DNA from: a virus
Lineage: Duplodnaviria; Caudoviricetes
IMG/VR virus record: IMGVR_UViG_3300044557_000107
Coordinates: 64,001-128,000 of that record
DNA: 64,000 bases
Direction: 5' to 3' (one strand)
The notes below the pieces were generated by a model. The model saw only the letters and a list, made by a program, of their open reading frames with translations, ran no database searches and was not told the DNA's origin. Every line of letters begins with the position of its first letter. The stretch's first letter is position 1. A program made the position numbers and the translations under genes. This document shows, one piece after another, positions 10,697 to 58,650 of the stretch.

Positions 10697-10808
10697 ATAC
10701 TTATTACCAAGTTAGTTGAGAAAGCTTGGTATTTTAATGCCGAGATGAATCAACGTCTTGAGTGACCACCATTGTATTTTGTAATATAATTAGAAGAGGT
10801 GATAATTA

Positions 10809-11945
10809 ATGACTTTGAAAGGAATCAAACTAAGAATCTACCCTAATAGAGAACAACAATTAAAGATTAAACTTAACTTTGGATATAACAGATTTGTTTG
10901 GAATCAGATGTTAGACATGATGATTAAACGCTATGAAAATAATCCCGAAGCGCCTTTTCTGGGAGCCTATACCCTAGATAAACTATTACCAACCCTAAAA
11001 TGTGAATACCCATTCTTAAAAGATGCTGAATCTACCAGTCTTCAAAATACTAATCATGACTTGATTGAAGCTTATAAGAAATTCTTTAGAGAACACAAAG
11101 GATTTCCTAAGTTTAAATCACGTAAATTTCCTAAGCAGAGTTACCAATCAAAAATGGGAATTAGCAAGGCTTCAACAAATTATTTAAAGCTACCTAAGAT
11201 TGGTGTTGTTAAAGCCAAAGGACAAATACCAGACTGTAAAATTAATAGGGTTACTATCAGATTATCTGCCACAGGAAAATTCTATGTGGTTTTGTTAGTT
11301 GATACAGATATTAATAGTCTTCCTAAAACTAATAATGCCGTAGGCATTGACATGGGTGTAGCAGATCTGATGATTACTAGTGATGGTATTAAATATCCCA
11401 CGATTAGATTTGATAAACTCCTCAGTAAAAAGAAACATTATTGGGAGAAACGGTTAGCTAGACGTAGACTGCAAGCTAAGAAGGAAATAGCTTGGGATAA
11501 GCATAATAAAGTAGCAGAGCCACATGAATTAAGTGATTTCAAGAACTACCAAAAAGCTAAAACTATGGTTGCCAAGTATAATGAGAAAATAGCTAACCAG
11601 CGCAATGATTATCTTCATAAGTTAACTAAGTCTTTAGTAGAGCAGTATGATGTGATTAAGATTGAAGATTTGAAAGCCAAAAATCTTCTAAAGAATCACA
11701 AGCTCGCTAGAGCAATTGCTAACCAATCATGGAGAGAACTACGTACACAGTTAGAATATAAATGTGAATGGTATGGTAAACAACTAGTCATTGTTAACCC
11801 CAGAAAAACATCACAAATTTGCTCTAATTGTGGTTATGATGATGGTAAACACACATTGGATATTCGACAGTGGACATGTCCTATGTGTGGTACCCATCAT
11901 GATAGAGATATTAATGCTGCTAAGAACATCTTAGCTAGTGAATAA
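10809..11945 (+). CDS. tnpB: TnpB RNA-guided endonuclease (IS200/IS605 family), copy 1, no tnpA
   Basis: KLRIYP N-terminus; RuvC I GIDMG, RuvC II IEDL, Zn finger CSNC/CPMC, RuvC III DRDINAAKNI; all catalytic residues intact. Confidence 0.95.
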   Translation: MTLKGIKLRIYPNREQQLKIKLNFGYNRFVWNQMLDMMIKRYENNPEAPFLGAYTLDKLLPTLKCEYPFLKDAESTSLQNTNHDLIEAYKKFFREHKGFPKFKSRKFPKQSYQSKMGISKASTNYLKLPKIGVVKAKGQIPDCKINRVTIRLSATGKFYVVLLVDTDINSLPKTNNAVGIDMGVADLMITSDGIKYPTIRFDKLLSKKKHYWEKRLARRRLQAKKEIAWDKHNKVAEPHELSDFKNYQKAKTMVAKYNEKIANQRNDYLHKLTKSLVEQYDVIKIEDLKAKNLLKNHKLARAIANQSWRELRTQLEYKCEWYGKQLVIVNPRKTSQICSNCGYDDGKHTLDIRQWTCPMCGTHHDRDINAAKNILASE

Positions 11946-11967
11946 CCAATAAAGACAAAGACTAACA

Positions 11968-12080
11968 TGGGCTGGGGCAGCCCTTAGTAAATAGCCATAA
12001 CCTCTATTTAGTACTCTAGTAGTATTAAACAAGTATGTGGTGTTCCTAGAAACCTGTGTTTTTAAACACAGTGTAGTTCA
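11968..12080 (+). ncRNA. omegaRNA/reRNA scaffold of tnpB-1 (guide begins ~12081, TTTCGGACGAGCAACATC)
   Basis: Hairpin-rich region after tnpB ending in GTAGTTCA; covarying homologues at 39.0 and 39.6 kb; 5' end uncertain and may overlap the CDS. Confidence 0.8.
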
Positions 12081-15056
12081 TTTCGGACGAGCAACATCTC
12101 CCGAAAATTTACCCCACCAATAACTTGTAGTCGCATCAAATTTTGAAAGCCCTGTTGAAGTATTATCAGCAATACACATGTTATTACCGATATATATTCC
12201 TACATGCCCCCGGGTTCCACTAGTATTCCAGAATACCAAGTCACCTTCTTTAAGATTTTTCCAGACATCACTTTTATCGCTTCCACTAACATGAGACAAC
12301 ACGGAGCTACTCCACATACTGTTTGTAGTTCCAATAGTAGAACCTGTTAGTGGATCACCAATGTCTTTATATAACCAACACATTGTGGACGAGCAATCTG
12401 CACTGGCGCCCGTTGTTGAGAATATGTCTTGGCTACCCCTACCGGCTCCTATAACATACCTAATAGACCCTTGACCATTCTTATTATAATAGCTTGTGAT
12501 TTTGCTTACAGCCGCTTGCGCCGCTGCTGTACCAGACTTAGTAGACCCATCAGATGAACTTGAATCGCTAGAGGAGCTACTAGACTCATCAACAGACCAT
12601 GCCATATTACTAAAGGTAGCTTCACCCATTAGTCCTCCTTGGAAGTCTGATGATTGCCCCCATAGGTTATTAAACCGATATTGGCCACTTTGGGGAAGAC
12701 CTCTAGTAACACCAAGGGTAGTTTCCCAACCGGACTGAAATGAGAAGCTATGAGAGACGGATTCAATATAAAATTCAAAGGTATCATTATAGTTATTTAG
12801 ATATACAGTAACACGGTCCCCAACTCGGTAATCTGGATGACCTACGACAACAATATCTCCGCTATAAAAATTAGGGTTATCGGCATACCAATTGAATAAT
12901 CTTTGTGTAAACTTTTTAAGGGAACTAGCAGAGCTATCTATTGTAGATGCATTAGTTGTTTTTGTAGTAGAACCTTTTACAATACTTTCTAGGTCCTTTT
13001 TAGATAGCTTATTACCTCCGTTATGATACTGATCCCATATAGCTAGTAATTCATTATCATCTACATTTTTTAGGGTGGACTTAGCTAATTTCATATAGTC
13101 TACAATGTCGCCTTTAGAATCACTAATAACCTTTTTTACATTAGACACATTTAAGGCTTTAGTTCCGGTATTAGCATATCCCCCACCTTGTGAAATGTGC
13201 ATATCGTCATTCCACTTAGTAGTAGGAAGTTGAAAGTCATTGTTGATATAATCATTAATTAAATTTACAGCCTCTTGTGCTGAAATATTATTAGCACTAT
13301 TTGTAAGGTTTTGAGCATACGTAGCTTTATTAATTCGTAATAAATTACGGTCAATAGCATTTAAGAAGGCTACAGTTGAATCATACGTGTAGGTAGTACC
13401 ATGTTCAGCACTATCCGTGTCACCTTTACTATAATCAGAATTACTACCGGATTCTGCATCACCCATGCTGAGATACTGATTAGTTTTTTCAAGGTAGCTG
13501 TACCCATACTGATCAACTAAAGTTTGATTATACTGGGGGTAGGACCCAATTGCTCCTGAGTTATTAGTGATACTGAACAAAGAGTAACTATCAGGATTTA
13601 CGTTGAATACAGAGTAAGCCTGTGCATTTGACTGGTTAACAGTAACGTTTTTTATAGACCCAGAATCAATCTCAATAGTCTCTAAAGAATTCCAATCATC
13701 AGGATCGAAAGGGGTTCTACGTACATTTACATGACACAGCCCCGTAGACTCAAATTCAAAATAGAGTTCATTGAAAGGTTCTACACGAATATCATCCATA
13801 AGTTCTAATAGAGATCCACTAAATGAGGTGTACTGAGTAGAGTCTGTTAGTTTTTCATCAACATCCCAACTTTGAAAATTACTGGTATCTAAAAAGTCAA
13901 AGATAGTTTTGGAGCCGTTATCATAACTATAGTTTATATAGGGCTTGAAACGTTCTATAATTTCATTTTCAATGGTAGCTACATCATTACCCATAAATGC
14001 AACGCCAGTACTATTCTCTTTTTCGGAGTCGATAGAACTAGAAGAAGCATCTACATTTCCTGATGTAGACCCACTGCTATCGCTACTACCAGAAGATGAA
14101 CTACTATCATCACCGGAAGAATCTCCGCCATTATACTCAGCGTAACCAGTTTCTAGGTTTTTTGTGTAATGAGCTAAGTTATCTCCAAAGTAGTTATGTG
14201 CTTTAAGAATTTGGGCAAATTGAGGAATACTAGTAGCATTTTGAACACCATCATTATAGAGAGTTGTGGCATAATCACTAGCATAAGCACTCCATGAAGA
14301 ATATTTATAGCTAGGTCCTACATGCATACCTGTTAGATTTTTAGAAGAGTATGCGGGGGCTCCTGGTTGGTCTTTTCCTCCGGATTCTGCCATGATTTGA
14401 GCAAATACATATCCCGACTTAAGCCCAATAGCTTTAGTGACGGCTTTATCAATAGCACGTGCAATAGGCTTACCGGGTCCTGCGTTAGTATCTACATTGA
14501 CCGTTATTTTTTTACCCGAGGTTGACGAAGATGTATTTGTAGAACTATCATCGCTATCACCAGATGAGCTAGATTCTGCTTCATAATCCGCATTTGTATC
14601 CCATAGCCATCCCATATTTGAAAGGTTAACTTGGGCTTCTTCAATAAGTCCTAATTTATACTGAGAGAATACTTTAGATAAGCTTTGACCCGTGATTTGA
14701 TAATATAAATTGTTATTTTCAAATTCGCCAATAATGTCTATTTCAGAAACCATGCCCACGAAAATAACATTATTATTAACAGTACCAATATTAGCACTTC
14801 CAACACCCATATTTGGATCTGCTCGAATAATAATGATATCGTTTTCATTAACAACATAATCCCACCGGTAGTCTCCAGCAAGCATAACAGAAAATGCAGG
14901 GGAATCCAACGACATATCATTTGAAGTACTCAATCCAAGCAATCCTTTAGTTAAGGTGTCATTTGATAGGGTGTCGTCTGAATAACTAATCTGGTACCCA
15001 TTAGACGAACTATGGATTTCTAATGAAAAGTTAGGAAACATTATGTTGTTTGCCAA
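12078..15056 (-). CDS. Baseplate hub / tail-associated lysin with lysozyme-like and C-terminal NlpC/P60 domains
   Basis: AQIMAESGG lysozyme-like motif; ADCSS...GDLVFW...GHVGIYIG NlpC/P60; EFYIESVSHSF hub motif. Confidence 0.85.
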   Translation of the reverse strand: MANNIMFPNFSLEIHSSSNGYQISYSDDTLSNDTLTKGLLGLSTSNDMSLDSPAFSVMLAGDYRWDYVVNENDIIIIRADPNMGVGSANIGTVNNNVIFVGMVSEIDIIGEFENNNLYYQITGQSLSKVFSQYKLGLIEEAQVNLSNMGWLWDTNADYEAESSSSGDSDDSSTNTSSSTSGKKITVNVDTNAGPGKPIARAIDKAVTKAIGLKSGYVFAQIMAESGGKDQPGAPAYSSKNLTGMHVGPSYKYSSWSAYASDYATTLYNDGVQNATSIPQFAQILKAHNYFGDNLAHYTKNLETGYAEYNGGDSSGDDSSSSSGSSDSSGSTSGNVDASSSSIDSEKENSTGVAFMGNDVATIENEIIERFKPYINYSYDNGSKTIFDFLDTSNFQSWDVDEKLTDSTQYTSFSGSLLELMDDIRVEPFNELYFEFESTGLCHVNVRRTPFDPDDWNSLETIEIDSGSIKNVTVNQSNAQAYSVFNVNPDSYSLFSITNNSGAIGSYPQYNQTLVDQYGYSYLEKTNQYLSMGDAESGSNSDYSKGDTDSAEHGTTYTYDSTVAFLNAIDRNLLRINKATYAQNLTNSANNISAQEAVNLINDYINNDFQLPTTKWNDDMHISQGGGYANTGTKALNVSNVKKVISDSKGDIVDYMKLAKSTLKNVDDNELLAIWDQYHNGGNKLSKKDLESIVKGSTTKTTNASTIDSSASSLKKFTQRLFNWYADNPNFYSGDIVVVGHPDYRVGDRVTVYLNNYNDTFEFYIESVSHSFSFQSGWETTLGVTRGLPQSGQYRFNNLWGQSSDFQGGLMGEATFSNMAWSVDESSSSSSDSSSSDGSTKSGTAAAQAAVSKITSYYNKNGQGSIRYVIGAGRGSQDIFSTTGASADCSSTMCWLYKDIGDPLTGSTIGTTNSMWSSSVLSHVSGSDKSDVWKNLKEGDLVFWNTSGTRGHVGIYIGNNMCIADNTSTGLSKFDATTSYWWGKFSGDVARPK

Positions 15057-15071
15057 ATTACACCCTTCTTT

Positions 15072-18000
15072 CTATGACTGTTGTGACCAGTTTACTGTAT
15101 GATCACTTAAGCTACTTTTTAATTTGGTAGCAATCTTATTTCCGATAGTTGTTCCTGTTGCATTAGCATCATCAATATTACCATTAACATTGACTGTAAT
15201 TGGAATATTTATCCCACCAGAGTTTCCTCCCGAGGTAACCCCTGTTTTCTGAGCGGCATAGGCGGCTAGCGCTTTAGAACGTCCACTAGAAGCGGCACTT
15301 CCACCAGTAGGAACCACAGTTTCTTCGGAGTTCTCTGATATCCATGAAAGCGTAGGCTTTTCAATAACATTACCCGTGGCATTAGCCGTGGGTGCTTTGG
15401 ATCCTGTATTAATAGTCGTATTTGCGCTATAGGATGATCCCGATTTGCTTGTGGTAGTCTTTGTTGTGGAAGACGAAGAACTAGAACTAGAACTTTGAGT
15501 AATTGCACTAGCATTACTTGCTTTACCAAAGAAACCGTTTTGGGCTCTAGCTTGTTCTAGCAGTTGGGCTGTTTGATCAAGGTTACGTTTTTCTTTATCT
15601 GTGGCCTTGACTTTCTTATTGTCGTTAATGGTACTTGCCCTACTAATTTCTTTTTTAAGACGACTTCCTGCTTTAGTAACACCATCAAAAGCTTTGGTAC
15701 CACCAAAGTACCCGGCGATACCTCCAATAAGCCCTCCAGCGGCTTCTCCAATCCCGGTCTCACCAAGTACAGGAATAGCCGCACCAATTCCAGCTCCTAC
15801 TTCACCACCGGCAACTGCACCACCCCAACCAGATGCATCACGAGCACCCGTCTTAACAGCTTTTCTTCTGGCCGTTCTTTTCGCGTTTGCTTGTGCTCTT
15901 TTTCTACTTTGGCCTTTATTCTCATTAGCAATTTCAGCAGATTCTTTTGTCGAAGTATAGGTTCCGTAGATATCCATAGCTGTGGTAGCTCCTGCAAGAA
16001 GCGCATTCCCTTTACCGCCTAAAAGTTTAGTCCCTTTTTCAAGAACGCTACCTGTCTTAGTCAGCACACTACCCGTTCGACCAGTCCGAAGCCAGCCACC
16101 TGCTTTGGTCCCATATTTTCCAATGGTTCTACTTAGTCTGGAATTAGTAACTCTTGAGGTAGCTCTATAAGCACGATCTCGGATTCCGCCAGACTTTCCT
16201 CCGCCACCACCTACAACAGTTGTTTTAGACGAAGTACCTTCGCCGGTTCCTCCAGTTTTATTACTAGTATTTTCTCTGGTTTTAGACGTTGTTTCCTTAG
16301 TCGCCGTAGTCTCATTATAAGAACTACTAGTCCCTGTTTTAATAGATTCTGCAATTTTAGCCTCAAGAATTGCTTTAACAATCTGTGCAGTTCCCAGTCC
16401 GGTTGCAGTTACGATAGAAGCTAATCCTGAAGGTAACTTGTTAACCGCAATACTAATACTATTAACATATTTACCAATGGTATTCTGCTCATTACTAATA
16501 GATTTCTCATATTGAGCAGTACTTTGAAAGTTTGATGAATCTGTAGAGCTATTATAAGACTTAGAGTTTTGATTCTTCCTATTACTACCCGTTATATTGT
16601 TTTCTTTTTCCCATTTTTTAATATCAGAAGACGTTAGGTCTCCCTTTTCAGTCATTTCTGCTAGGGACTTCGCGGCTTTAGGATCGGATACGAGTCCTAG
16701 TTTCTGGTAAGCAAGGGCGGCTGTAGATACATTTCCTCTGGAGTAATTTTTAACTATTCCAGATATATCTTGAATATTATTAGGGTTTGTAATACCTTCA
16801 GAAGCTTGGATCTCTGCTCTTAAGTATCCACTTTGTCCTTGAAACTTGGTAGGATTTGATTGAATTAAGGATCTTAAAAGAGTACTGTTACCCCCAGTAC
16901 CCGCGGACTTGAAGGCACTATTCATCTGATTAAGATTGTTTCCACCAGCAGTTCCTTTCCAAGAACTACCCCCGTTTTTAGCAAGGTATGTCTGAGTAGC
17001 AGATGCTGTTTTAATACCCGAGGTAGTTACCTTTTGAGTATCCGTTTGATTCTTAACAATTTGGGATAGGTACTTAACCTGTTCTTGTAAAAGCCCTTGC
17101 GTATTCGAGTTTTTAGCGCCCCCAATAGCTTGATTAACAATTGAGTTAACTTGACGGGAGTTAGTAGCCGCACCCCCAGAGATGGCTGTGTTCATAAGCT
17201 CATTATAGTTAGATATACCAAACCCAGAACTTCTAGCATTTTGCATAATAGTCTTTAAATAGGAACTTGATACATTAGGGTTAGAACCATAGTTAGCACC
17301 TTGGGCCAATTGCATATAGGCTAATGAATCGCTCATACCAAACCCGGTTGATCTTTGAGCACCAACATTAATGGCGCGATTACGTGCCGACTGTGCGCTT
17401 ATTCCCGAGTTGTCTCCGACTTGGAACGCTAAATCCGCGGTACGCATATTTAAGTTCTTTCCTTGAGAATACCGTCGAGTAAAGTTACCCGTAGTAGCCC
17501 CTAAAACGTTAGACGTAAACGATACTGCACGAGATTGGAGAATATCTTGAAAAGACCCTCGTTTAGGGTCTACTGTAGGGTTCGCAGAGTTAACTGAAGC
17601 ACTGGACTTTGATAAGTTTCCAGCGGCTTCATTAGTTGCTTGTGAAAGGCTATTCAATGACTTAATCAGCTTTGTTTCAGCATCTTCCTGAAGCTTTAAT
17701 TTTGCAAGCTGGTTGTTATATTCGCTTCCAGAAATATTTCCACTTGCAAAGTCTTGAGTAGCAATACTTCGTTGTTGCTGATACATATTTATATTTTCTT
17801 GAGAAGACTGCCGTTGTTGCTTGATCCAGTCTTGCTGTTGCTGAATCATTTTTGATCCGTCACGGCTATCTCTTGAGAATCTTTGACTATCAATATAAGA
17901 CATATGCCCAGAGTCTACAGCCCTATTTGCACGTTCTCTTTGTCTAGTGCCTAAGTTGCTTACTTGACGTTGACGCATACGAATGTTTTCATGAGCTTCT

Positions 18001-18419
18001 CGGTGAGATATATCATCAGTACTACCCGCATAAGAACGTTTAGCAGAGTTCCAAGCGCCTCTAGAAATTCCAGATTGGCTCTCACTAACTAATTCTTTAA
18101 ACATTGCTCGGGTAGAATCTAACTGCTTTTCTAACTGCTGTGCTTGTTGTTGCAAATTAGTAAGTTCTCGGCTGTTACCCGCAGTACTAGCTTGCTGTTG
18201 TAGTTTATTTAAGCTACCCTGAGCAGTACCTGATAAGGTGTTAACTAGTTTCATTTGGGCTACTAAGTTCTGAAATCCAGTACTACTGGTATAGCCACCA
18301 GACTTAAGCATAGTTTCGCCGCGTTCAGCAATACTATCCTGCAATTGACTAATTTGCTCTAATGCTTTTTGTGCTTGGCTTGCATCAGAAGTAACTTCAA
18401 AGTTATATTTATTTGCCAC
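15072..18419 (-). CDS. Tape measure protein
   Basis: 1115 aa, helical, Gly/Ala-rich hydrophobic stretch, downstream of tail chaperones. Confidence 0.85.
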   Translation of the reverse strand: MANKYNFEVTSDASQAQKALEQISQLQDSIAERGETMLKSGGYTSSTGFQNLVAQMKLVNTLSGTAQGSLNKLQQQASTAGNSRELTNLQQQAQQLEKQLDSTRAMFKELVSESQSGISRGAWNSAKRSYAGSTDDISHREAHENIRMRQRQVSNLGTRQRERANRAVDSGHMSYIDSQRFSRDSRDGSKMIQQQQDWIKQQRQSSQENINMYQQQRSIATQDFASGNISGSEYNNQLAKLKLQEDAETKLIKSLNSLSQATNEAAGNLSKSSASVNSANPTVDPKRGSFQDILQSRAVSFTSNVLGATTGNFTRRYSQGKNLNMRTADLAFQVGDNSGISAQSARNRAINVGAQRSTGFGMSDSLAYMQLAQGANYGSNPNVSSSYLKTIMQNARSSGFGISNYNELMNTAISGGAATNSRQVNSIVNQAIGGAKNSNTQGLLQEQVKYLSQIVKNQTDTQKVTTSGIKTASATQTYLAKNGGSSWKGTAGGNNLNQMNSAFKSAGTGGNSTLLRSLIQSNPTKFQGQSGYLRAEIQASEGITNPNNIQDISGIVKNYSRGNVSTAALAYQKLGLVSDPKAAKSLAEMTEKGDLTSSDIKKWEKENNITGSNRKNQNSKSYNSSTDSSNFQSTAQYEKSISNEQNTIGKYVNSISIAVNKLPSGLASIVTATGLGTAQIVKAILEAKIAESIKTGTSSSYNETTATKETTSKTRENTSNKTGGTGEGTSSKTTVVGGGGGKSGGIRDRAYRATSRVTNSRLSRTIGKYGTKAGGWLRTGRTGSVLTKTGSVLEKGTKLLGGKGNALLAGATTAMDIYGTYTSTKESAEIANENKGQSRKRAQANAKRTARRKAVKTGARDASGWGGAVAGGEVGAGIGAAIPVLGETGIGEAAGGLIGGIAGYFGGTKAFDGVTKAGSRLKKEISRASTINDNKKVKATDKEKRNLDQTAQLLEQARAQNGFFGKASNASAITQSSSSSSSSSTTKTTTSKSGSSYSANTTINTGSKAPTANATGNVIEKPTLSWISENSEETVVPTGGSAASSGRSKALAAYAAQKTGVTSGGNSGGINIPITVNVNGNIDDANATGTTIGNKIATKLKSSLSDHTVNWSQQS

Positions 18420-18424
18420 GAGTA

Positions 18425-19084
18425 CTATTCCACCTTCTTAGTAATTGTATTAGCCCGGCTCTTACCAATAGATTCTAGATATTTGGACTTCTCTTGCATT
18501 TCTTTCAGTTTTTGCTTAGCCTCTATATTTTTAGAGTCTAATATTTGCTTTTGATTGTACTTAGTGAAGTTTCGTTCGAAGTCTCCCCCAGCTTTTTCCA
18601 TGAAGTCCTTCTGTTCTTTACGACTAAGTTCTTCTAGCTGAGCTTCAATTTTAGACTTAGACATCCCCTCCGGAATTAGTTCAAAGTCTCCATCTTTGTC
18701 TTTCCATGAAGTATCGTCATCTCTAAAGCTATTCTGTTCTCCTTTAAGAACTCGACTTCCTTTATTGTCATAACCATATATTTTACGCTTAGAATTTCCA
18801 GAAGAATTATCATTAGAATCCTCTAAAGAATCTTGTGAGTTTTCTAATGCTTGAGATTCTTCAAGTTGCATTTCTTGGTAAGCCATAAGATACCAAGTAA
18901 CCTGATCTTCTGATAAATTATTAATTAAAGGATCTCCAGGAAGTGTATGGGACAAGTACATGACTCTAAAGTAATTTTTAGATAGATTAGTCTTAACTAG
19001 TTTGCTTATCTCGGTATTATTGTCATTTTTAGAAGTCTTATTAAAGCTGAAACTGATCCTTCCAATTAAGGAAGTCTTCTCCAA
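18425..19084 (-). CDS. Tail assembly chaperone, downstream (GT-like) frame
   Basis: Overlaps the upstream chaperone in the +1 frame; no convincing independent start. Confidence 0.65.
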   Translation of the reverse strand: MEKTSLIGRISFSFNKTSKNDNNTEISKLVKTNLSKNYFRVMYLSHTLPGDPLINNLSEDQVTWYLMAYQEMQLEESQALENSQDSLEDSNDNSSGNSKRKIYGYDNKGSRVLKGEQNSFRDDDTSWKDKDGDFELIPEGMSKSKIEAQLEELSRKEQKDFMEKAGGDFERNFTKYNQKQILDSKNIEAKQKLKEMQEKSKYLESIGKSRANTITKKVE

Positions 19085-37643: not shown

Positions 37644-38333
37644 ATGACTATTAAGAAAAATCTTGGAGTTACTTTGATGACCTTTGGTGCAACTTTAGCA
37701 CTAGGACTGGGAGTTAGCTCACAAGTACACGCAGATACTCAAGTGAATGCAAATACGATTAAAGTTACTCAGGGTGATACACTAGGTGCTATTGCTAAAG
37801 AACATGATACGACTGTAGCGTCTTTAGCTAACGCTAATGGACTAGCTAACGAGAATTTGATTTATGTAGGAGACCAATTAACACTGCCAACTACGGGGAC
37901 TTATCAAGTAACTGCTAGTGTCCCACATAAGAATGCTACAAATAGTACCTATAAAATGCCTACTTCAGGTAATGCAAGTAACAGTGTAAGCACATCAAAT
38001 AGTTCAAGCAATACCACAGAAACTACAGCAGGCAGTCAAACATCAAGTACATCTAGTTCCGTAGCTACGCCTACAAGTACTACAACAGCATCAACTAGCA
38101 CTGTAAGTGCTGAACAAAGTGCTAAGGATTGGATTGCACAGAAGGAATCTGGAGGTTCTTATACAGCAAGCAATCCATCAGGAGCTTATGGAAAGTACCA
38201 GCTAATGAGCTATAACTTAAAGTGGGGTACTTCGATAGACGCCCAAGAACGTGCCGCCTCGGCGTATATTCATAGTCGATATGGTACATGGACGAATGCT
38301 AAAGCGTTCTGGATGCAACACGGGTGGTACTAA
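37644..38333 (+). CDS. Secreted LysM + lysozyme-like protein (Apf, aggregation-promoting-factor type)
   Basis: Signal peptide ending VHA-D; LysM GDTLGAIA...NLIYVGDQL; Ser/Thr linker; AKDWIAQKESGGSY...YGKYQL...WMQHGWY. Confidence 0.88.
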   Translation: MTIKKNLGVTLMTFGATLALGLGVSSQVHADTQVNANTIKVTQGDTLGAIAKEHDTTVASLANANGLANENLIYVGDQLTLPTTGTYQVTASVPHKNATNSTYKMPTSGNASNSVSTSNSSSNTTETTAGSQTSSTSSSVATPTSTTTASTSTVSAEQSAKDWIAQKESGGSYTASNPSGAYGKYQLMSYNLKWGTSIDAQERAASAYIHSRYGTWTNAKAFWMQHGWY

Positions 38334-38509
38334 TATATAACAGTTAGATAAAATTAGAGCCGTGTAGGTGGCACCTACAAAATGAATAAGGGAAGTCTGG
38401 TAGCTCTTTAAAACACTTCCAAGTGGTTATCCTCTGTGATTGGTGCTTATAAGCATTAAATGATAAGATATTTAGGGGACTTAGCACGGGTCTTCGCCCC
38501 ACACAAAAC

Positions 38510-38580
38510 GCCTCTATAGTTCAATGGTAGAACACTAGTCTTGTAAACTAGGAATAGAAGTTCAATTCTTCTTAGAGGCA
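38510..38580 (+). tRNA. tRNA-Thr(UGU)
   Basis: GCCTCTA/TAGAGGC acceptor, CTAGT-CT TGT AA-ACTAG anticodon arm, AGAAG-TTCAATT-CTTCT T arm. Confidence 0.88.
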
Positions 38581-38625
38581 TTATAGTATATAGTTTGTAG
38601 TGATAGATAGGGGGGTGGAATCGCG

Positions 38626-38727
38626 TTGGACAGTATATCTGATGTAGCTTTAATTGCTTTGGTAGGGTTTCTAATTTACACAACTCATGTGTGGGCGTGG
38701 GCGTGGCTCCTAATATTTGTTCTTTAA
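38626..38727 (+). CDS. Small membrane peptide (33 aa)
   Basis: RBS GGGGGTGG + TTG; MDSISDVALIALVGFLIYTTHVWAWAWLLIFVL. Confidence 0.6.
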   Translation: MDSISDVALIALVGFLIYTTHVWAWAWLLIFVL

Positions 38728-38746
38728 ATAGAGAGTAGGTGGTATA

Positions 38747-38872
38747 TTGGATAGAAACACGGCAGTCACCATATGGAACATCGGAGTCTTATGTTTCTCA
38801 GGATTCCTTGTACGGACCACTAATAACCCATGGTGGGCGCTGATAGGATTACTAGCGTGTGCGCCATCATAA
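38747..38872 (+). CDS. Small membrane peptide (41 aa), paralog of preceding
   Basis: RBS AGGTGG + TTG; MDRNTAVTIWNIGVLCFSGFLVRTTNNPWWALIGLLACAPS. Confidence 0.6.
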   Translation: MDRNTAVTIWNIGVLCFSGFLVRTTNNPWWALIGLLACAPS

Positions 38873-38890
38873 AATTATTCAAAATAAACG

Positions 38891-39104
38891 TTGACATTCT
38901 GTTTAACTACTAGTATACTAAGAACCATAAAGAACTTAGGTAACCATAGATGCGAAAACCAAGTATCTTAATAAGTTACTTAAGGATCTTTAAGTAAACT
39001 GGGCTGGGACAGCCCTTAGTAAATAGCTGTAACCTATAGATACTTTAGAGTATCCAAGTACGCAGTGTTCCTAGAAGCTCGTCACTTTAGTAACGAGCAG
39101 TTCA
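38891..39104 (+). ncRNA. Stand-alone omegaRNA cassette A (promoter + scaffold; guide from ~39105 CTGCCCACCAGTACCTCC)
   Basis: TTGACA-17-TATACT promoter; 39000-39104 is homologous to the tnpB-1 omegaRNA with compensatory changes and ends AGTTCA. Confidence 0.8.
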
Positions 39105-39273
39105 CTGCCCACCAGTACCTCCTGTCAAGGGTTATTGAAAACTGGTGTAAAACTAATATGTCGCGTCCAGTAATATGACTGGGGTGGGATGACTAAGGGT
39201 TGACACCTAACAAGACTGTCCGTTATCCTACATATTAGCAGGTAACCTTTGAGAGGCTTTGGGTTACCACAAT

Positions 39274-39361
39274 GGATAGGTACTCAAGTGGTTAAGAGGG
39301 TTGCTTGCTAAGCAATTAGGTCGTATAATGCGACGCGTGGGTTCGAATCCCACTCTATCCT
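39274..39361 (+). tRNA. tRNA-Ser(GCU)
   Basis: GGATAGG/TCTATCC acceptor, GTTGC-TT GCT AA-GCAAT, long variable arm, GTGGG-TTCGAAT-CCCAC. Confidence 0.9.
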
Positions 39362-39392
39362 TTAAAATTATTAATAGGGAGGTGAATTGTAC

Positions 39393-39503
39393 ATGTACAT
39401 GGAAGATGATAATATTAAGATAGATCATAGTATTTTAGATACGGAATCGTGGTTAACCGATGAGGATATTTACAATATGTTCTTTGAGGAATCTATAAAT
39501 TAA
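39393..39503 (+). CDS. Small acidic peptide (36 aa)
   Basis: RBS GGGAGGTG; MYMEDDNIKIDHSILDTESWLTDEDIYNMFFEESIN. Confidence 0.6.
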   Translation: MYMEDDNIKIDHSILDTESWLTDEDIYNMFFEESIN

Positions 39504-39527
39504 ATTTAAGAAAACATGTTACTTTAG

Positions 39528-39740
39528 TTGACATTCTGTTAACTAGGGGTATACTAAAAACTATAAAGAACTTAGGTAACCATAGATGCGAAAACCAAGT
39601 ATCTTAATAAGTTACTTAAGGATCTTTAAGTAAACTGGGCTGGGACAGCCCTTAGTAAATAGCTGTAACCTCTATGTGCTTTAGGGTACTCAAGCATGCA
39701 GTGTTCCTAGAAGCCCGTTACTTTAGTAATGAGTAGTTCA
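39528..39740 (+). ncRNA. Stand-alone omegaRNA cassette B (promoter + scaffold; guide from ~39741 CGGAGGACATATAGTTTG)
   Basis: Near-duplicate of cassette A from GTTGACA to AGTTCAC, then sequences diverge completely. Confidence 0.8.
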
Positions 39741-39755
39741 CGGAGGACATATAGT

Positions 39756-39911
39756 TTGAAATTAGATACGGATAAATTATGCCAGGCTATTGAAGATCTG
39801 GGATATACACCAGAGTTAAACTATAGTAATCCCGGAATAGAAGTTGATGGGAAGCATATAGACTGGGAAGATATTGGAACAGTATTAGATGTAACTTCAA
39901 AAGTAGTATAA
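39756..39911 (+). CDS. Small acidic hypothetical protein (51 aa)
   Basis: RBS GGAGG then TTG; MKLDTDKLCQAIEDLGYTPE...; ORF-track start 39729 lies inside the omegaRNA. Confidence 0.55.
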   Translation: MKLDTDKLCQAIEDLGYTPELNYSNPGIEVDGKHIDWEDIGTVLDVTSKVV

Positions 39912-39919
39912 AACCAGCT

Positions 39920-40690
39920 TAATGCCATCCAAGGTTGCTATTAGATCTCAATGTAATTGAAGTTTAATAGCATCTCTGGATGCACGATCAGCGGCATAGC
40001 CGTGTAGACTGCGTGGGCCTGAAACATGGTCATTAAGATAACTCAATCGTTATCTTGGGGTAGTTAAGCCTAGCAACAGAATTTAGCCGTCTCCGAAGGT
40101 AGCGGGACGTTAATTTAGAATACTATCTAATTGCATGATATAGACCGCAACGTCTCTAAACTATGGTACTAGTGTTAAGCGTGTGTATGAGGAACTATCA
40201 GTTTCGCCACGTCTAAGATCCATATTTTAAGTAAAAACGCAGTCGTCGGGTGAGGATACCCATCAGGTTACTGTCTCGTTAACTGTAGTAGTCAGCGGGT
40301 AGGCAAAAGAAAGTCTAGTTTGTGGGGTCTTAGGGGATAAAATGGAAGAATAAGGTACTTACGGAGTGGGGCACATAATATTCCAGCAACAGCAAATATG
40401 GCTTAACAACCATAGAACCAAAGTTGTACGTTAATAAGTGTCTTTGCTGTGATAGGACTAATAATCCCTATAACACTCCAGTAAGGTTTTAGTAGGTCAA
40501 GGCAGAGGCAGATAAAACTTGAAAAATAACTTAACTGCTAATGATGACTGAAAGATGGTCGGTAGATAATCCGGGCCCAGTTCTTGTGAAGGTAGCTAGA
40601 GCATGCAAATGACGGTTTGTGTGTTAGCCTAGCTAAAACTGTAACCTAATAATTCGCACATTAAGATTACCCACCCAAGCCAATGGGAAC
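39920..40690 (+). ncRNA. Large ornate ncRNA, GOLLD/ROOL-like
   Basis: ~770 nt with no ORF >=60 aa, GC-richer, many long-range helices, in a phage tRNA cluster; family not verifiable by eye. Confidence 0.6.
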
Positions 40691-40698
40691 ACTATTAT

Positions 40699-40789
40699 AC
40701 AGGTGTAGCATAACGGCAGTGCAACTGGTTTATAACCAGTATTAGCTGTAGATTTCAGCAAGAAGTGGGTTCGACTCCCTCCACCTGTA
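40699..40789 (+). tRNA. tRNA with UAU anticodon (Ile) and long variable arm
   Basis: ACAGGTG/CACCTGT acceptor; ACTGG-TT TAT AA-CCAGT; variable hairpin GCTG-TAGATTT-CAGC; TTCGACT T loop. Confidence 0.78.
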
Positions 40790-40910
40790 TTTTAGCAAAT
40801 GTAGAAATATTTGGGGAACCTATACCCCTTTATAGGAATATTTTGAAAAGCTAAAATTGGAAGTACCCAAAATTAAGGTATCCCAAGTCTTATCAATATA
40901 AGATCAATAT

Positions 40911-40981
40911 TGAGAGGAGCTAAAGAGTTAGAATAGCGATGCAGGTTCTAGCTTATGCAGGTTTAAATCCTGCCTTCCACA
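40911..40981 (+). pseudogene. Degenerate tRNA-like element
   Basis: T-arm-like GCAGG-TTTAAAT-CCTGC and stem GTTAGAA/TTCTAGC, but no clean D arm or anticodon loop. Confidence 0.4.
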
Positions 40982-40982
40982 T

Positions 40983-41531
40983 TGTCCCGTAGTTGAGTGG
41001 TAACTATGTCTAAATAAGCTGGTGAAAAATGATAAATGGTAACTATATAATGGAAGTAGCCCCTAAAGAATATCCCTATAGGCTTATGCGTGGTAAATAC
41101 GCTTACTCTCATAAAGTAGCATATTGGAAATATTACGGATGTATACCAGAGGGTTTTGAAATTCATCATAAGGACGGAAATAAGCATAATAATGATATAT
41201 CAAATTTATGTGCGGTTTCTAGAAAGCAACATCAGATAATTGAACACGTAATAAGAGGAAAAGTTCAAGTTCTTGTTAAATGTCCAGTATGTAATTCATT
41301 ATTCATTATAGATAAACGCAAGACTCATTTGATAAACTCCAATAATAAAGTAACCTGTTGTAGTAGAAGCTGTTCTGGTAAATTTCCCTCACTAACTAAA
41401 ATTGAGCAAGATAAAGGGATTAACGAGAATATTATAATGGAGTTTACAAATCATGTATTACCATAAATATAAAACATTAATGTTTTATAAAACTAATGCG
41501 GATATCACAGGTTCGAATCCTGTCGGGACAG
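40983..41531 (+). tRNA. tRNA gene split by HNH insertion (5' half 40983-~41011, 3' half ~41497-41531); isotype undetermined
   Basis: Acceptor TGTCCCG pairs with CGGGACA; D arm TAGTTGAGTGGTAAC upstream and T arm ACAGG-TTCGAAT-CCTGT downstream of the HNH ORF. Confidence 0.7.
41029..41466 (+). CDS. HNH homing endonuclease with C-terminal Zn-binding domain
   Basis: YSHKVAY...IHHKDGNKHNNDISNL; CPVC...CCSRSC. Confidence 0.88.
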   Translation: MINGNYIMEVAPKEYPYRLMRGKYAYSHKVAYWKYYGCIPEGFEIHHKDGNKHNNDISNLCAVSRKQHQIIEHVIRGKVQVLVKCPVCNSLFIIDKRKTHLINSNNKVTCCSRSCSGKFPSLTKIEQDKGINENIIMEFTNHVLP

Positions 41532-41546
41532 TTTAAAATACAATTT

Positions 41547-41634
41547 AGAGGGGTGTCAGAGTGGTCTAATGTGTCGGCTTTGAATACCGATGATCGTGAT
41601 GAGCGATCCGTGGGTTCGAATCCCACCCCCTCTG
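41547..41634 (+). tRNA. tRNA-Ser(UGA)
   Basis: AGAGGGG/CCCCTCT acceptor, TT TGA AT loop, long variable arm, GTGGG-TTCGAAT-CCCAC. Confidence 0.85.
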
Positions 41635-41640
41635 TATTAT

Positions 41641-41714
41641 CACGCGCATAGCTCAGCTAGCCAGAGCACCACGTGTGGTTGTGGAGTATGCCGGTGCAAA
41701 TCCGAAGCGCGCGA
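41641..41714 (+). tRNA. Atypical or degenerate tRNA-His(GUG)
   Basis: TAGCTCAGCTAGCCAGAGC D arm, CCAC...GTG...GTGG anticodon arm, irregular T loop (TGCAAAT) and acceptor. Confidence 0.5.
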
Positions 41715-41725
41715 TAAAATAAGTA

Positions 41726-41778
41726 TTGACTTAAGGATACCTTAGTGGTATCCTTATTTTAGTTAAATGAAAGAAGGA
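41726..41778 (+). promoter_or_regulatory. Repeated early promoter/RBS cassette with internal inverted repeat, copy 1
   Basis: TTGACT-17-TATCCT with TAAGGATAC...GTATCCTTA palindrome; near-identical copies at 53953 and 62319. Confidence 0.8.
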
Positions 41779-41785
41779 AATCTTA

Positions 41786-42241
41786 ATGGCAATTATGAGT
41801 GCAAAACAATATAGGAATCAATTGAATAGTAAAGTACAGGATTCTGACAGTAAACTATATGAAGATGGATTAGCAAGGATTGAAAAAGCAATAGATGAAA
41901 GATTAAAGAGTGCTTACCCCGGTTGGTATGTAGAGGTATTTTTAGATACTGACACGATGCGGGGGAATGCTCTTAAAAATATTCGATTGAAACTAGAAAA
42001 TCTGGGATATTTAGTTATCACCTGCGAGAAAGATCCGCTGAATCCCCTTGTACGTGATCTATTTATGAAAATCATAGTTCCGGACCCAGATGAACCCACA
42101 ATTTATTTCAAGAGAAGAATTCAAAGTTTGCTCCCACGAAATGACCATTCCCAGCGAATTATGTTAAATAGTCACATGGATGAAGGGAACTCCGGACTAG
42201 TATTAGATATTCTCCGGGAAACTATTAGAAAAGGGGAATAA
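41786..42241 (+). CDS. Hypothetical protein
   Basis: 151-aa ORF behind promoter cassette. Confidence 0.65.
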   Translation: MAIMSAKQYRNQLNSKVQDSDSKLYEDGLARIEKAIDERLKSAYPGWYVEVFLDTDTMRGNALKNIRLKLENLGYLVITCEKDPLNPLVRDLFMKIIVPDPDEPTIYFKRRIQSLLPRNDHSQRIMLNSHMDEGNSGLVLDILRETIRKGE

Positions 42242-46020: not shown

Positions 46021-47208
46021 TTATTTAGTAATTTTAGTTGTATCTCCAGTTACCCAGTTAGTTCCTAAGTATTGAATATTCATAGCACCAATGCGGTCAT
46101 CATTAGACTTATAACCACAGTTGGCACACTGGTACTCATGAATATCATGTTTTCTGTTATTTTTATTGACAGATCCACATTTAGGACAACGCTGGCTGGT
46201 ATACTGAGCACTAACCTTAATAACTTTAGAACCATTAAGTTCTGCTTTATAGGTTAGAAATTGCTCAAACTGGTAGAAAGCCCAGCTAACCTGCTCGTAA
46301 CGATTTGTTTTAGCAACTTTCTCCGTAGCAAATCGAACATTGGTTAAGTCTTCTAATACAAAGAGAGTGTCTTTACCATATTTATCAGTGAGTGTCTTAG
46401 TTATTCGATGATTAATATCACTCATCCAGCGGTTTTCTCGCTGACCAATGGCTTTAAGTCTTCTTTTAGCAGACTTAGTACCCTTACTTTGTAATTGTTG
46501 TCTTAACTTCTTGTACTTTCTACGTTTTGCTGTAATAGCTTTACCATCTATAAAGGAAGTTTTACCTTTTTCATCATAAGTGGTTGCTAAAAAGCGTAGA
46601 CCTCTATCTATGCCAACTACATGTTTCAAGTCATCTTTTTCAAAGATACGAGGTTCTACAGTAGCAGAGATATGCAAGAAGTAATGTCCATATGATTTAA
46701 CAAGTTTAGCAGTGCCTAATTTACCATCTAAGTATTGTTCAAAGCCCTTCATAGAAAAACCCATAATTTCACGGTTACCTAAGGTATTAAGAGATAGCTT
46801 ACCATTCTTAAATGACCAGTCACGTATAGATACTAAATCACACTGAGGTCTTTTAAAGCTAATAGGCTTTTGTAACCATGATAGGTCACGCTGAGCGGTA
46901 TACCAAGTATCAGTGTTGTTATCTTTATAGTGGTATGGCTCTTGTTTAAGCTGTGTTTCTACAGTTCTATACCTAGCAATAACTGTTTTAAAGACAGATT
47001 GTGTCATTTGTGCCTTAAGACCAAACTTGTCCCTAACCTTATGATACAAATCTTTATTAATATCTTTTTGCTTAGGTATAAAGTTATGGTCAAAGTAGTA
47101 CTTAGATACTAAATTACAGGCATTCCTATACTGTTGCATAGTAGCTAGTAATAAGTTACCTTGTTCAGATGTAGGATATATTCTTGCTTTAATAGTTACA
47201 GTTGTCAT
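46021..47208 (-). CDS. tnpB: TnpB RNA-guided endonuclease, copy 2, no tnpA
   Basis: IKARIYP; GIDRG, LEDL, CPKC/CANC, NDDRIGAMNI; start ATG 47208 after RBS AGAGGTG (track gives 47232). Confidence 0.93.
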   Translation of the reverse strand: MTTVTIKARIYPTSEQGNLLLATMQQYRNACNLVSKYYFDHNFIPKQKDINKDLYHKVRDKFGLKAQMTQSVFKTVIARYRTVETQLKQEPYHYKDNNTDTWYTAQRDLSWLQKPISFKRPQCDLVSIRDWSFKNGKLSLNTLGNREIMGFSMKGFEQYLDGKLGTAKLVKSYGHYFLHISATVEPRIFEKDDLKHVVGIDRGLRFLATTYDEKGKTSFIDGKAITAKRRKYKKLRQQLQSKGTKSAKRRLKAIGQRENRWMSDINHRITKTLTDKYGKDTLFVLEDLTNVRFATEKVAKTNRYEQVSWAFYQFEQFLTYKAELNGSKVIKVSAQYTSQRCPKCGSVNKNNRKHDIHEYQCANCGYKSNDDRIGAMNIQYLGTNWVTGDTTKITK

Positions 47209-47235
47209 TTGTGTTTCACCTCTTCCCTTCACTAT

Positions 47236-56958: not shown

Positions 56959-58347
56959 ATGAAAGAAAAGTTAAACAAGGGGATTAAGGTCAGAATATTT
57001 CCTAATGAAGAGCAAGTGGGACAAATTAGATTATCATTTATGTGGGCACGGAACTTTTATAACTATCTGGTTGAATACCAGAAAGACTACACCAAAGCTA
57101 TCTGGATTATGCGAGATCGAGAAGGTGGATATAGAAAAGATAAGAATGGTAAAGTTATACTATTTGACAAGAAGGGTAATGAAAGTAAAACTGGTAAACC
57201 TCAGTTTAAGTATAAGGGAAATGTATATCTAAGTAAGTTTGACTTGATGAAGTTAGCTTCACCTTATCGAAAGTTTCATAAAGATGCAGGTGCAAGTAAG
57301 GTGGACAGCCACGTTTATGAAATGACGGCCACTTCATTTTATCAAGCGATTCAAAATCAATATAATCCTAGAATGATTAATGCAAAAGCACCTAAGAAGC
57401 ATAAATGGGTTACTTCATATACTAGTAGATACACACAAGCGTCTAAGTTTTCATCAACAAAGAAAAGTGGTTCTGTTCCAAGCATGTATAGTGTAACAAA
57501 ACATTGGGTAAAGGTACCAAAGTTAGGCATGGTTAAATACTCTGGTTCACAATCATTGAAAAATATTAAGCCAAAGAACTTTACTATTACAGAGGATAAA
57601 ACAGGTAAATTCTACATGAGTATTATTATTGAATATCATAAGGATATTAAATCTGTTAAGCCTGTAAAAGTAGTTGGGATTGACTTAGGGTTAGATACTC
57701 TAGCTATTACTAGTGAGGGTAAAAAATATAAGATTATTCCTTTCACTAAGAATCATGAAAGAACCCTAGCAATTAAGAGCAGAAAAGCAAGTAAGAGAAG
57801 ATTATTCATGGAAACGGTTATTGGATCTTCTAAGAATAAGGCAAAGCTGTTTCCACTTACTCAACATGATTTTCCTAGTGTTAATGAAGCATACAGGGGA
57901 AGAGCTTTAGTATATAAGCACACTGCAAATCAACGAAATAACTATCTTCATGAAGTAAGTAGAAGCATTGTAGATTCTGCTGATGCAGTGGTTGTAGAAG
58001 ACATTACCGCTAGTTTCATGATGAAGGGTGGTAAAAGTAAGAAAACAGGTCGTAAGACTAAGAATAAGAGCGCCAAGAGTGCTAGTAATGCTAGTTGGAA
58101 CAAGCTATTAGTATATCTAGAATACAAGTGTAAGGAAGATGGAAAACAGTTTATTAAAGTAAGCAAAAACTATACTAGTCAGATTTGCCATGATTGTGGT
58201 TATTTATATGAAAACTTGGGTGTACCAAATGGTGGTGACAATCGTTCTGTTCGTGAATGGGACTGCCCTAAATGTGGGAAACATCATGATCGTGACATTA
58301 ATGCGGCTATCAATATTAAAAATAGAGGGTTAGAAGTTATTGATTAA
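56959..58347 (+). CDS. CRISPR-adjacent TnpB-derived RuvC nuclease (Cas12f/TranC-like), 462 aa
   Basis: KVRIFP; GIDLG, VEDI, CHDC/CPKC, DRDINAAINI intact; longer than the other two TnpBs; followed by leader and array. Confidence 0.85.
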   Translation: MKEKLNKGIKVRIFPNEEQVGQIRLSFMWARNFYNYLVEYQKDYTKAIWIMRDREGGYRKDKNGKVILFDKKGNESKTGKPQFKYKGNVYLSKFDLMKLASPYRKFHKDAGASKVDSHVYEMTATSFYQAIQNQYNPRMINAKAPKKHKWVTSYTSRYTQASKFSSTKKSGSVPSMYSVTKHWVKVPKLGMVKYSGSQSLKNIKPKNFTITEDKTGKFYMSIIIEYHKDIKSVKPVKVVGIDLGLDTLAITSEGKKYKIIPFTKNHERTLAIKSRKASKRRLFMETVIGSSKNKAKLFPLTQHDFPSVNEAYRGRALVYKHTANQRNNYLHEVSRSIVDSADAVVVEDITASFMMKGGKSKKTGRKTKNKSAKSASNASWNKLLVYLEYKCKEDGKQFIKVSKNYTSQICHDCGYLYENLGVPNGGDNRSVREWDCPKCGKHHDRDINAAINIKNRGLEVID

Positions 58348-58397: not shown

Positions 58398-58650
58398 TGT
58401 AAGTAAGTCATAAGGTTAATCAAGCCTACTAAGAAGTGCAAGTCTTCTAATGACTATATGGGGTTTCTCAATCCTTGGTTAACTACGGGTTCCGTGAGCT
58501 ATAGATGTTTTATAGACACTACTCAGCATACCCTAAAAACATGATAGGTGTTAATCAAAGCTCAATTTATTGAGTGGGTAATAGCCTATTGAGACCTAGA
58601 CATTTTAATAGTATAAGTATACTAAATAGGGTTTATTAGTCTTAATAACT
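58398..58650 (+). ncRNA. Putative tracrRNA / scaffold-leader
   Basis: ~250 nt non-coding with several hairpins; TTCTCA (58465-70) and CATACCCTA (58527-35) are complementary to the repeat 3' end TAGGTATGAGA. Confidence 0.55.

Follow-up and report, generated by a model that had tools for sequence, protein, structure and literature searches.

Guide RNAs encoded apart from the nuclease that uses them are an established feature of TnpB biology. Stand-alone omegaRNAs act in trans if a compatible effector is present, as was shown for OMEGA systems (Altae-Tran et al. 2021; summarised in PMC10691335). According to Meers et al. (bioRxiv 10.1101/2023.03.14.532601), PATE-like elements 'often encode' omegaRNAs for which other IS copies must supply TnpB. 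For ISDra2 TnpB, cryo-EM and truncation have established that a 116-nt scaffold suffices and that the ORF-embedded 5' region of the RNA is dispensable (PMC10097598). Loss of a tnpB reading frame therefore need not harm guide function. That stand-alone omegaRNAs give a TnpB extra targets is thus already described and is not new here.

Two such units, cassettes A and B, are carried by a large tailed phage of Lactobacillus type with a complete genome of 139,820 bp and terminal repeats. The window is a 64,000-nucleotide stretch of it (positions 64,001 to 128,000 of IMG/VR record IMGVR_UViG_3300044557_000107), and coordinates refer to the window unless the genome is named. The main inference of the initial annotation, that the pair are trans guides for a TnpB encoded elsewhere, is the accepted view of a known kind of element, since trans-acting stand-alone omegaRNAs have been described. 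A and B are real and, judged by their sequence, look functional as TnpB guide-RNA genes. It is reasonably likely that they are gene-less members of the IS200/IS605 family, with an RNA that is loaded in trans by TnpB, and that these immobile homing passengers persist as guide-RNA genes.

Organization of cassettes A and B

Each cassette consists of a promoter, a leader and a scaffold, with the guide supplied by the right flank.

38891–39105, plus strand: cassette A, whole ORF-less omegaRNA element (promoter, leader, scaffold)
38891–38919, plus strand: promoter of A, TTGACA, 17-nt spacer, TATACT; 11 of 12 consensus positions
38927–38992, plus strand: leader of A, a long hairpin with an inner hairpin (stem GATGC/GTATC) at its top; loop GAAAACCAA at 38954–38962
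38990–39105, plus strand: 116-nt omegaRNA scaffold of A, which is also the transposon right end; ends in AGTTCAC
39106–39121, plus strand: guide of A, the first 16 nt of the right flank, TGCCCACCAGTACCTC; boundary taken from the junctions described below
39528–39741, plus strand: cassette B, whole ORF-less omegaRNA element
39528–39555, plus strand: promoter of B, TTGACA, 16-nt spacer, TATACT; 11 of 12 consensus positions
39563–39628, plus strand: leader of B, loop GAAAACCAA at 39590–39598
39626–39741, plus strand: 116-nt omegaRNA scaffold of B, which is also the right end
39742–39757, plus strand: guide of B, GGAGGACATATAGTTT

The cassettes are 215-nt units 636 nt apart, with a tRNA gene and an ORF in between. 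The tRNA gene that they flank, tRNA-Ser(GCT), is part of a small tRNA island. A and B are 91% identical (196 of 215 aligned positions). The middle of their alignment holds a perfect 109-nt block, which could reflect recent gene conversion instead of selection. Both begin with TTGACA and TATACT hexamers set 16 or 17 nt apart, which are the two best sigma-70 matches in 38300–41800, and both end in AGTTCAC, beyond which the sequences are unlike. The last 116 nt or so align with the right end of the tnpB-1 element at 11958–12081, a region that extends from the tnpB-1 stop codon to a GTTCA motif at 12076–12080. The window contains exactly three occurrences of a 27-nt core motif, and none of 100 shuffles contains it. 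Neither cassette is preceded by an ORF of TnpB size, and the longest ORF that ends near a scaffold has 28–39 aa. The initial annotation had recognised the near-duplication, the paired promoters, the common end, the match to tnpB-1 and the missing reading frame, and each of these was borne out.

Other assignments were considered. A CRISPR array or crRNA was rejected, as there are no short direct repeats alternating with spacers and each cassette has a single guide at its 3' end. Segmental duplication was rejected because the flanks are unrelated and unique. A composite transposon bounded by A and B and carrying tRNA-Ser is unlikely, because A is without a left-end hairpin. An Rfam 15 scan of the window at gathering thresholds returned four tRNAs only; no curated model fits the cassettes, which does not contradict their identity as RNAs.

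TnpB genes and the scaffold family

The intact partner gene in the window, tnpB-1, and its element have the following parts.

10706–10808, plus strand: left end of the tnpB-1 element, boundary approximate, from the alignment upstream of tnpB-1, tnpB-2 and cassette F
10809–11945, plus strand: tnpB-1, 378 aa, RuvC D/E/D intact, close homologue of ISDra2 TnpB
11958–12081, plus strand: omegaRNA scaffold and right end of the tnpB-1 element; guide from 12082

TnpB-1 contains domains PF07282, PF01385 and PF12323, and aligns to the ISDra2 TnpB structures (E 2.6e-58) at all three RuvC residues. Its intact relative TnpB-3, 70% identical, is encoded just past the window end, about 25 kb downstream of the cassettes. 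The initial annotation had reckoned with one TnpB; the genome encodes two intact cognate proteins, TnpB-1 and TnpB-3. The third gene, tnpB-2 (genome 10620–11690, minus strand), is 88% identical to tnpB-1 and has an intact scaffold. Its first 33 or so codons are gone, because the left end is fused to codon ~34, and it is probably a 5'-truncated pseudogene. No TnpA (Y1 transposase) was found in this phage.

The right ends of tnpB-1, tnpB-2 and tnpB-3 all align with the scaffolds of A and B. Across the whole genome there are eight scaffold copies, of which five are gene-less and three tnpB-linked, instead of the three copies first counted; matches within the genome have nhmmer E-values of 1e-24 to 1e-35. 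The gene-less copies, all five in unrelated contexts, are A and B together with cassettes C, D and F, which lie outside the window. Three related IMG/VR phage records (118–124 kb) contain sixteen more copies, about half of them gene-less.

Further TnpB-type sequences occur in the phage, which has at least six such genes or fragments of several families. Distant TnpB-like ORFs at 46021–47232 (minus strand) and at genome 131274–132497 show 29% and 26% identity to TnpB-1. A 992-aa ORF on the minus strand (12078–15056) takes its stop codon from the TCA of the tnpB-1 right end (12078–12081), which places the tnpB-1 element at the very 3' end of that gene. The tnpB-1 guide is antisense to its last codons.

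Element boundaries and the target-adjacent motif

Two independent junctions with related phages define where the elements end. At the first, homology to an unrelated, intact tnpB gene of phage G003 (403 aa) starts exactly after the GTTCAC of cassette C. The site in G003 reads GATTTTAT and then the guide sequence, with one mismatch in 16. At the second, positions 58514–58529 of the window are a perfect match to the guide of one tnpB element of phage G001, and TTTAT directly precedes them.

58509–58529, plus strand: TTTAT and 16 nt, vacant target flanked by the target-adjacent motif (TAM) for the guide of the G001 tnpB element

These two cross-phage junctions set the end of the element behind the last base, C or T, of GTTCA(C/T) and identify TTTAT as the TAM. 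Cassettes A and B accordingly end with the final C of GTTCAC, so that guide A begins at 39106 (TGCCCACC...) and guide B at 39742 (GGAGGACA...), in each case one base to the right of the position originally given. Vacant TAM-flanked targets exist, then, for cassette C and for a G001 element. Homology at both junctions is confined to the right flank, so that the elements sit at mosaic boundaries between phages and simple insertion is not proven.

The 102 nt after 58529 are 95% identical to the right flank in G001, and 58509–58529 falls in a non-coding stretch that separates a short repeat array from a 462-aa TnpB-like gene (56959–58347). Cassette C is closely followed (genome 48548–48882, minus strand) by the last 147 nt of a second-family tnpB with its 3' non-coding RNA region, 85% identical to the intact 403-aa gene of G003. 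No full-length partner of this remnant was found in this phage. It has the appearance of a guide-RNA module from another TnpB family, orphaned and placed behind the promoter of cassette C.

TTTAT stands directly before the shared left end of cassettes C, D and F and of one G001 cassette; the other G001 cassette has ATTAT. In the left end of C, D, F and a G001 copy, CACGTTAC...GTTACGTG forms a hairpin similar to that of the right end, which is what TnpA substrates should show. Cassette F has a second left end of the tnpB-1 type further upstream; one explanation would be that it inserted before a tnpB gene, which was then deleted by recombination between the scaffolds. Mobility at the level of the family and the TTTAT motif are both supported. 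Compared with C, D and F, cassettes A and B share a rewritten left end that provides a perfect -35 hexamer. The left-end hairpin of A was lost through a deletion of about 11 nt, and that of B is replaced and degenerate. In place of TTTAT, A has ATTCA and B has TCTAT. The right-end hairpin of B is weak as single-stranded DNA (-0.7 kcal/mol, versus -7.4 kcal/mol for C). Since the left-end hairpin and the TTTAT flank are needed by TnpA, A and B probably no longer transpose.

Conservation of the RNA fold

The scaffold was analysed in an alignment of 24 copies, the eight of this phage and the sixteen of the three related records. All copies diverge right after GTTCA(C/T), and the portion common to gene-less and tnpB-linked copies is about 116 nt. 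RNAalifold predicts 28 pairs, 20 of which keep pairing via changes on both sides, and the compensatory changes that had been noticed in fewer copies are therefore real. Five helices are predicted: a GGGCUG/CAGCCC stem, a long-range UAG/CUA pairing, GCUGU/GCAGU, a hypervariable stem, and a terminal hairpin that ends 7–9 nt before the boundary. A candidate pseudoknot between a 5' RACTA motif and a 3' TAGTT motif has some covarying examples, and its assignment is ambiguous. The stems of A and B are set apart by a single compensatory pair, by several transitions to G-U and by the loss of one terminal pair. The compensatory pair and the G-U transitions indicate that the RNA fold has been kept and the DNA hairpin has not. 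The cassette RNAs of A and B are also more stable than shuffles (z = -4.0 and -2.8).

These data bear on the view that A and B are inert relics, decaying leftovers of transposon insertions with no present activity. Such a view would account for the left-end hairpin that is lost in A and degenerate in B, for the missing TTTAT flanks, for the weak right-end DNA hairpin of B and for a partner gene, tnpB-2, that is itself a 5'-truncated pseudogene. Decay is hard to reconcile with near-consensus promoters, a fully intact scaffold whose stem changes are RNA-compatible, and folds that beat shuffled sequences, and inert relics are very unlikely. By the same comparison of stems and ends, A and B appear to be poor TnpA substrates that are still constrained as RNA genes. 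With promoter and RNA fold kept, and left-end hairpin and TTTAT lost, they have probably become fixed RNA genes, out of reach for mobilisation by TnpA.

Promoters, leaders and the neighbouring tRNA genes

No terminator was found after guide A or guide B. The guide of B spans a GGAGGA ribosome-binding site and extends to the start of the small ORF that follows, probably a TTG at 39756. Upstream of B, another small ORF has its stop codon inside the left end of the cassette. Two of the related phages have a gene-less cassette that leads straight into a tRNA gene, at a distance of 0 and 4 nt. In one of these, G002, the tRNA predicted by ARAGORN at 17670–17744 of locus L058, 4 nt after the cassette, has an irregular anticodon loop, and ARAGORN places a tmRNA gene at 18403–18755 of that locus, in the tRNA island of the same phage.

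The cassettes might be exapted promoter modules, in which a strong promoter drives tRNA-Ser and a small ORF while the omegaRNA part, devoid of guide function, rides along as a leader. Both promoters match at 11 of 12 positions and point in the same direction as the tRNA genes and ORFs; neither is followed by a terminator, B adjoins a ribosome-binding site, and the two related phages place a cassette immediately before a tRNA gene. Relative to mobile copies, moreover, A and B gained their perfect -35 at the expense of the left-end hairpin. A mere leader would not explain why the stem differences between A and B preserve RNA pairing. A and B also have every scaffold position that does not vary among the 24 aligned copies, although by definition, as both belong to that alignment. 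At 39200–39273, between guide A and tRNA-Ser, there are a second promoter-like site (TTGACA, 18-nt spacer, TATCCT) and a GC-rich hairpin; the whole spacer folds no better than shuffles. Promoter exaptation would in any case be compatible with guide function. As an account that replaces guide function it is quite unlikely.

The origin of the leader was also examined. By eye, the leader type of this phage (G000) resembles the ORF stretch around the Glu hairpin described below. Derivation from the 3' coding region of tnpB was rejected, as local alignments of every leader against tnpB 3' ends fell below the 95th percentile of shuffles. A small peptide was rejected too: a 15-codon ATG ORF occurs in the G000-type leader only and is not conserved, because G003-type leaders lack it.

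Guides, targets and distribution

Each guide is the local DNA to the right of the element, as in any IS605-type element. The initial annotation had proposed a search for TAM-flanked targets of guides A and B. No TTTAT-flanked target of either guide was found in the four related phages at up to three mismatches. Exact 16-mers of the two guides gave 17 matches in IMG/VR, a chance level, all in unrelated contigs and none TTTAT-flanked. The 25-mer of A's flank had no match among metagenome contigs, and guide A, at up to two mismatches in 39 Levilactobacillus genomes, gave counts like the reversed-pattern control with no perfect match. The proposed alignment with relatives likewise disclosed no empty site for A or B among GenBank phages and IMG/VR relatives, which are too diverged to show one; what this phage shares with them at the DNA level is almost only TnpB elements. 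Guides of the related phages do match TTTAT-flanked sites in each other.

The nearest named relatives are Lactobacillus myophages of the Herelleviridae (Lbab1, Lb338-1, 3-521 and 521B), with little shared DNA beyond scaffold and tnpB. Phage Lbab1 has a tnpA-like gene beside tnpB. Homologues of TnpB-1 that are 70–81% identical occur in Levilactobacillus, Secundilactobacillus, Lentilactobacillus and others, some with a Y1 tnpA directly upstream; these and the Lbab1 genes represent autonomous members of the family. Gene-less copies of the same architecture are present in Secundilactobacillus chromosomes. With a strict pattern, gene-less copies were detected in 4 of 401 Lactobacillaceae genomes, versus 12 copies spread over all four phages, three of which have one in the tRNA island.

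This distribution could suggest a domesticated guide library, a set of gene-less cassettes that the phage keeps so that one TnpB attacks chosen sites in competitors or the host. The enrichment in phages, the cross-matching guides of the related phages, and the retention of promoter and RNA fold in A and B while features needed by TnpA were lost are all consistent with it. Chosen sites are difficult to see, however, in guides that are mere local flank, and no target of guides A and B was found in related phages or, for exact 16-mers, in IMG/VR. Guide A is also without a metagenome match and does not exceed its control in the 39 Levilactobacillus genomes, the same architecture resides in bacterial chromosomes, and guide B covers the ribosome-binding site of the phage's own next gene. 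A library of this kind is improbable. The proposal of structure-conserved guide genes thus stands in part: A and B are promoter-driven and ORF-less, have differing guides and match intact TnpBs in the genome, whereas a purpose-built repertoire is not borne out by guides that are flanks for which no target was found in these searches. The alternative offered at the same time, non-autonomous IS derivatives homing via TnpB, fits the family best, with the reservation that A and B themselves look immobilised for TnpA.

A conserved hairpin in leaders and in tnpB

A hairpin between promoter and scaffold is present in 17 of the 18 gene-less copies examined. Its 9-nt loop, GAAAACCAA, is invariant, and its stem occurs in 10 different sequences. 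The same hairpin is found within tnpB ORFs of this clade, where it begins on the catalytic RuvC-II Glu codon.

11664–11688, plus strand: hairpin inside tnpB-1 (ORF nt 856–880), stem GAAGATTT/AAATCTTC, loop GAAAGCCAA; starts on the codon of catalytic Glu286

The consensus is GAAGATTT-GAAAACCAA-AAATCTTC, with the exact loop in 57 of the 86 copies scanned. Covariation includes a TT-to-CC change paired with an AA-to-GG change, which alters an amino acid. Across Lactobacillaceae tnpB genes the hairpin, with loop GAAA(A/G)CCAA, is conserved with covariation.

In AmaTnpB, an mRNA stretch next to the RuvC-II residue (nt 825–875) inhibits DNA cleavage in trans (Nety et al., PMC10278001). The position of the tnpB hairpin matches this inhibitory stretch, an analogy that may serve as a lead. 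Pairing of the hairpin region with the scaffold, the mechanism proposed for AmaTnpB, was not supported here, as duplex energies were no better than those of shuffles in most copies. The retained hairpin may point to a regulatory layer of omegaRNA biogenesis, of which no description was found in the literature searched. A bolder, combined reading would give this TnpB clade a dedicated RNA module for control or loading in the GAAAACCAA-loop hairpin, the counterpart of the AmaTnpB inhibitory stretch and obligatory in gene-less elements, and would make A and B RNA-only homing genes immobile for TnpA, retained in the tRNA island for biasing inheritance against co-infecting relatives. As a whole this is rather unlikely, though not negligible.

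Proposed mechanism of persistence

The favoured reading, that A and B are immobile homing passengers served in trans by TnpB, can be set out as a series of steps. (i) Each cassette combines the promoter of the transposon left end, a leader hairpin with GAAAACCAA, a scaffold of about 116 nt that doubles as right end, and a guide derived from the flank. (ii) Its RNA is presumably made from its own promoter. (iii) An intact family member, TnpB-1 or its 70% relative, would take up the RNA in trans. (iv) The complex would cut any genome copy in which TTTAT precedes the guide sequence. (v) The copy cut may be a vacant allele in a co-infecting relative, or the donor joint after excision. (vi) With the cassette-bearing genome as template, recombinational repair of the cut genome would transfer the cassette to it together with adjacent genes, in this case tRNA genes, which would make the cassettes RNA-only homing passengers. 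(vii) A and B would persist as fixed guide-RNA genes.

Use in trans by TnpB and homing between phages are what we infer from these elements. The TTTAT-flanked targets found across phages make RNA-guided homing directly testable. If the cassettes are active, one or two TnpB proteins would be served by up to eight guides, and TnpB elements would act like RNA-guided homing endonucleases in phage–phage competition.

Comparison with known systems

The stand-alone omegaRNAs of OMEGA systems (PMC10691335) are the closest counterparts. They too are mobilised omegaRNAs without effector or transposase, with effector loci in the same genome and a guide set by the flank. A and B differ in residing in a lytic-type phage of 140 kb, with the cassettes partly in its tRNA island, in having a clear sigma-70 promoter and an extra conserved hairpin, and in having seemingly lost mobility.

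The PATE-like, ORF-less IS200/IS605 elements of Geobacillus stearothermophilus (Meers et al.) share with the cassettes the possession of left and right ends and no gene. Classical PATEs are defined by both subterminal palindromes. Both hairpins are present in C, D, F and a G001 copy and not in A or B, the left one being absent from A and degenerate in B. Unlike PATEs, the cassettes retain an internal tnpB hairpin between promoter and scaffold.

ISDra2 TnpB (PDB 8bf8, 8h1j; PMC10097598) is closely homologous to TnpB-1, whose catalytic residues are intact. The cassette scaffold, like that of ISDra2 omegaRNA, is about 116 nt, a match in length, and has several stems and a terminal hairpin no more than 10 nt from the guide. 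The two systems differ in their target-adjacent motifs, a deduced TTTAT here and TTGAT for ISDra2.

A final parallel, by analogy, is with free-standing homing endonucleases of T-even phages such as SegB, in the tRNA region of T4 (PMC13565253). In both cases a selfish nuclease system located among phage tRNA genes could cleave the allele that lacks the element in a co-infecting relative, and markers nearby would be carried along. The cassettes would differ from SegB-type enzymes in that recognition is guided by RNA and the element at the site carries no protein gene.
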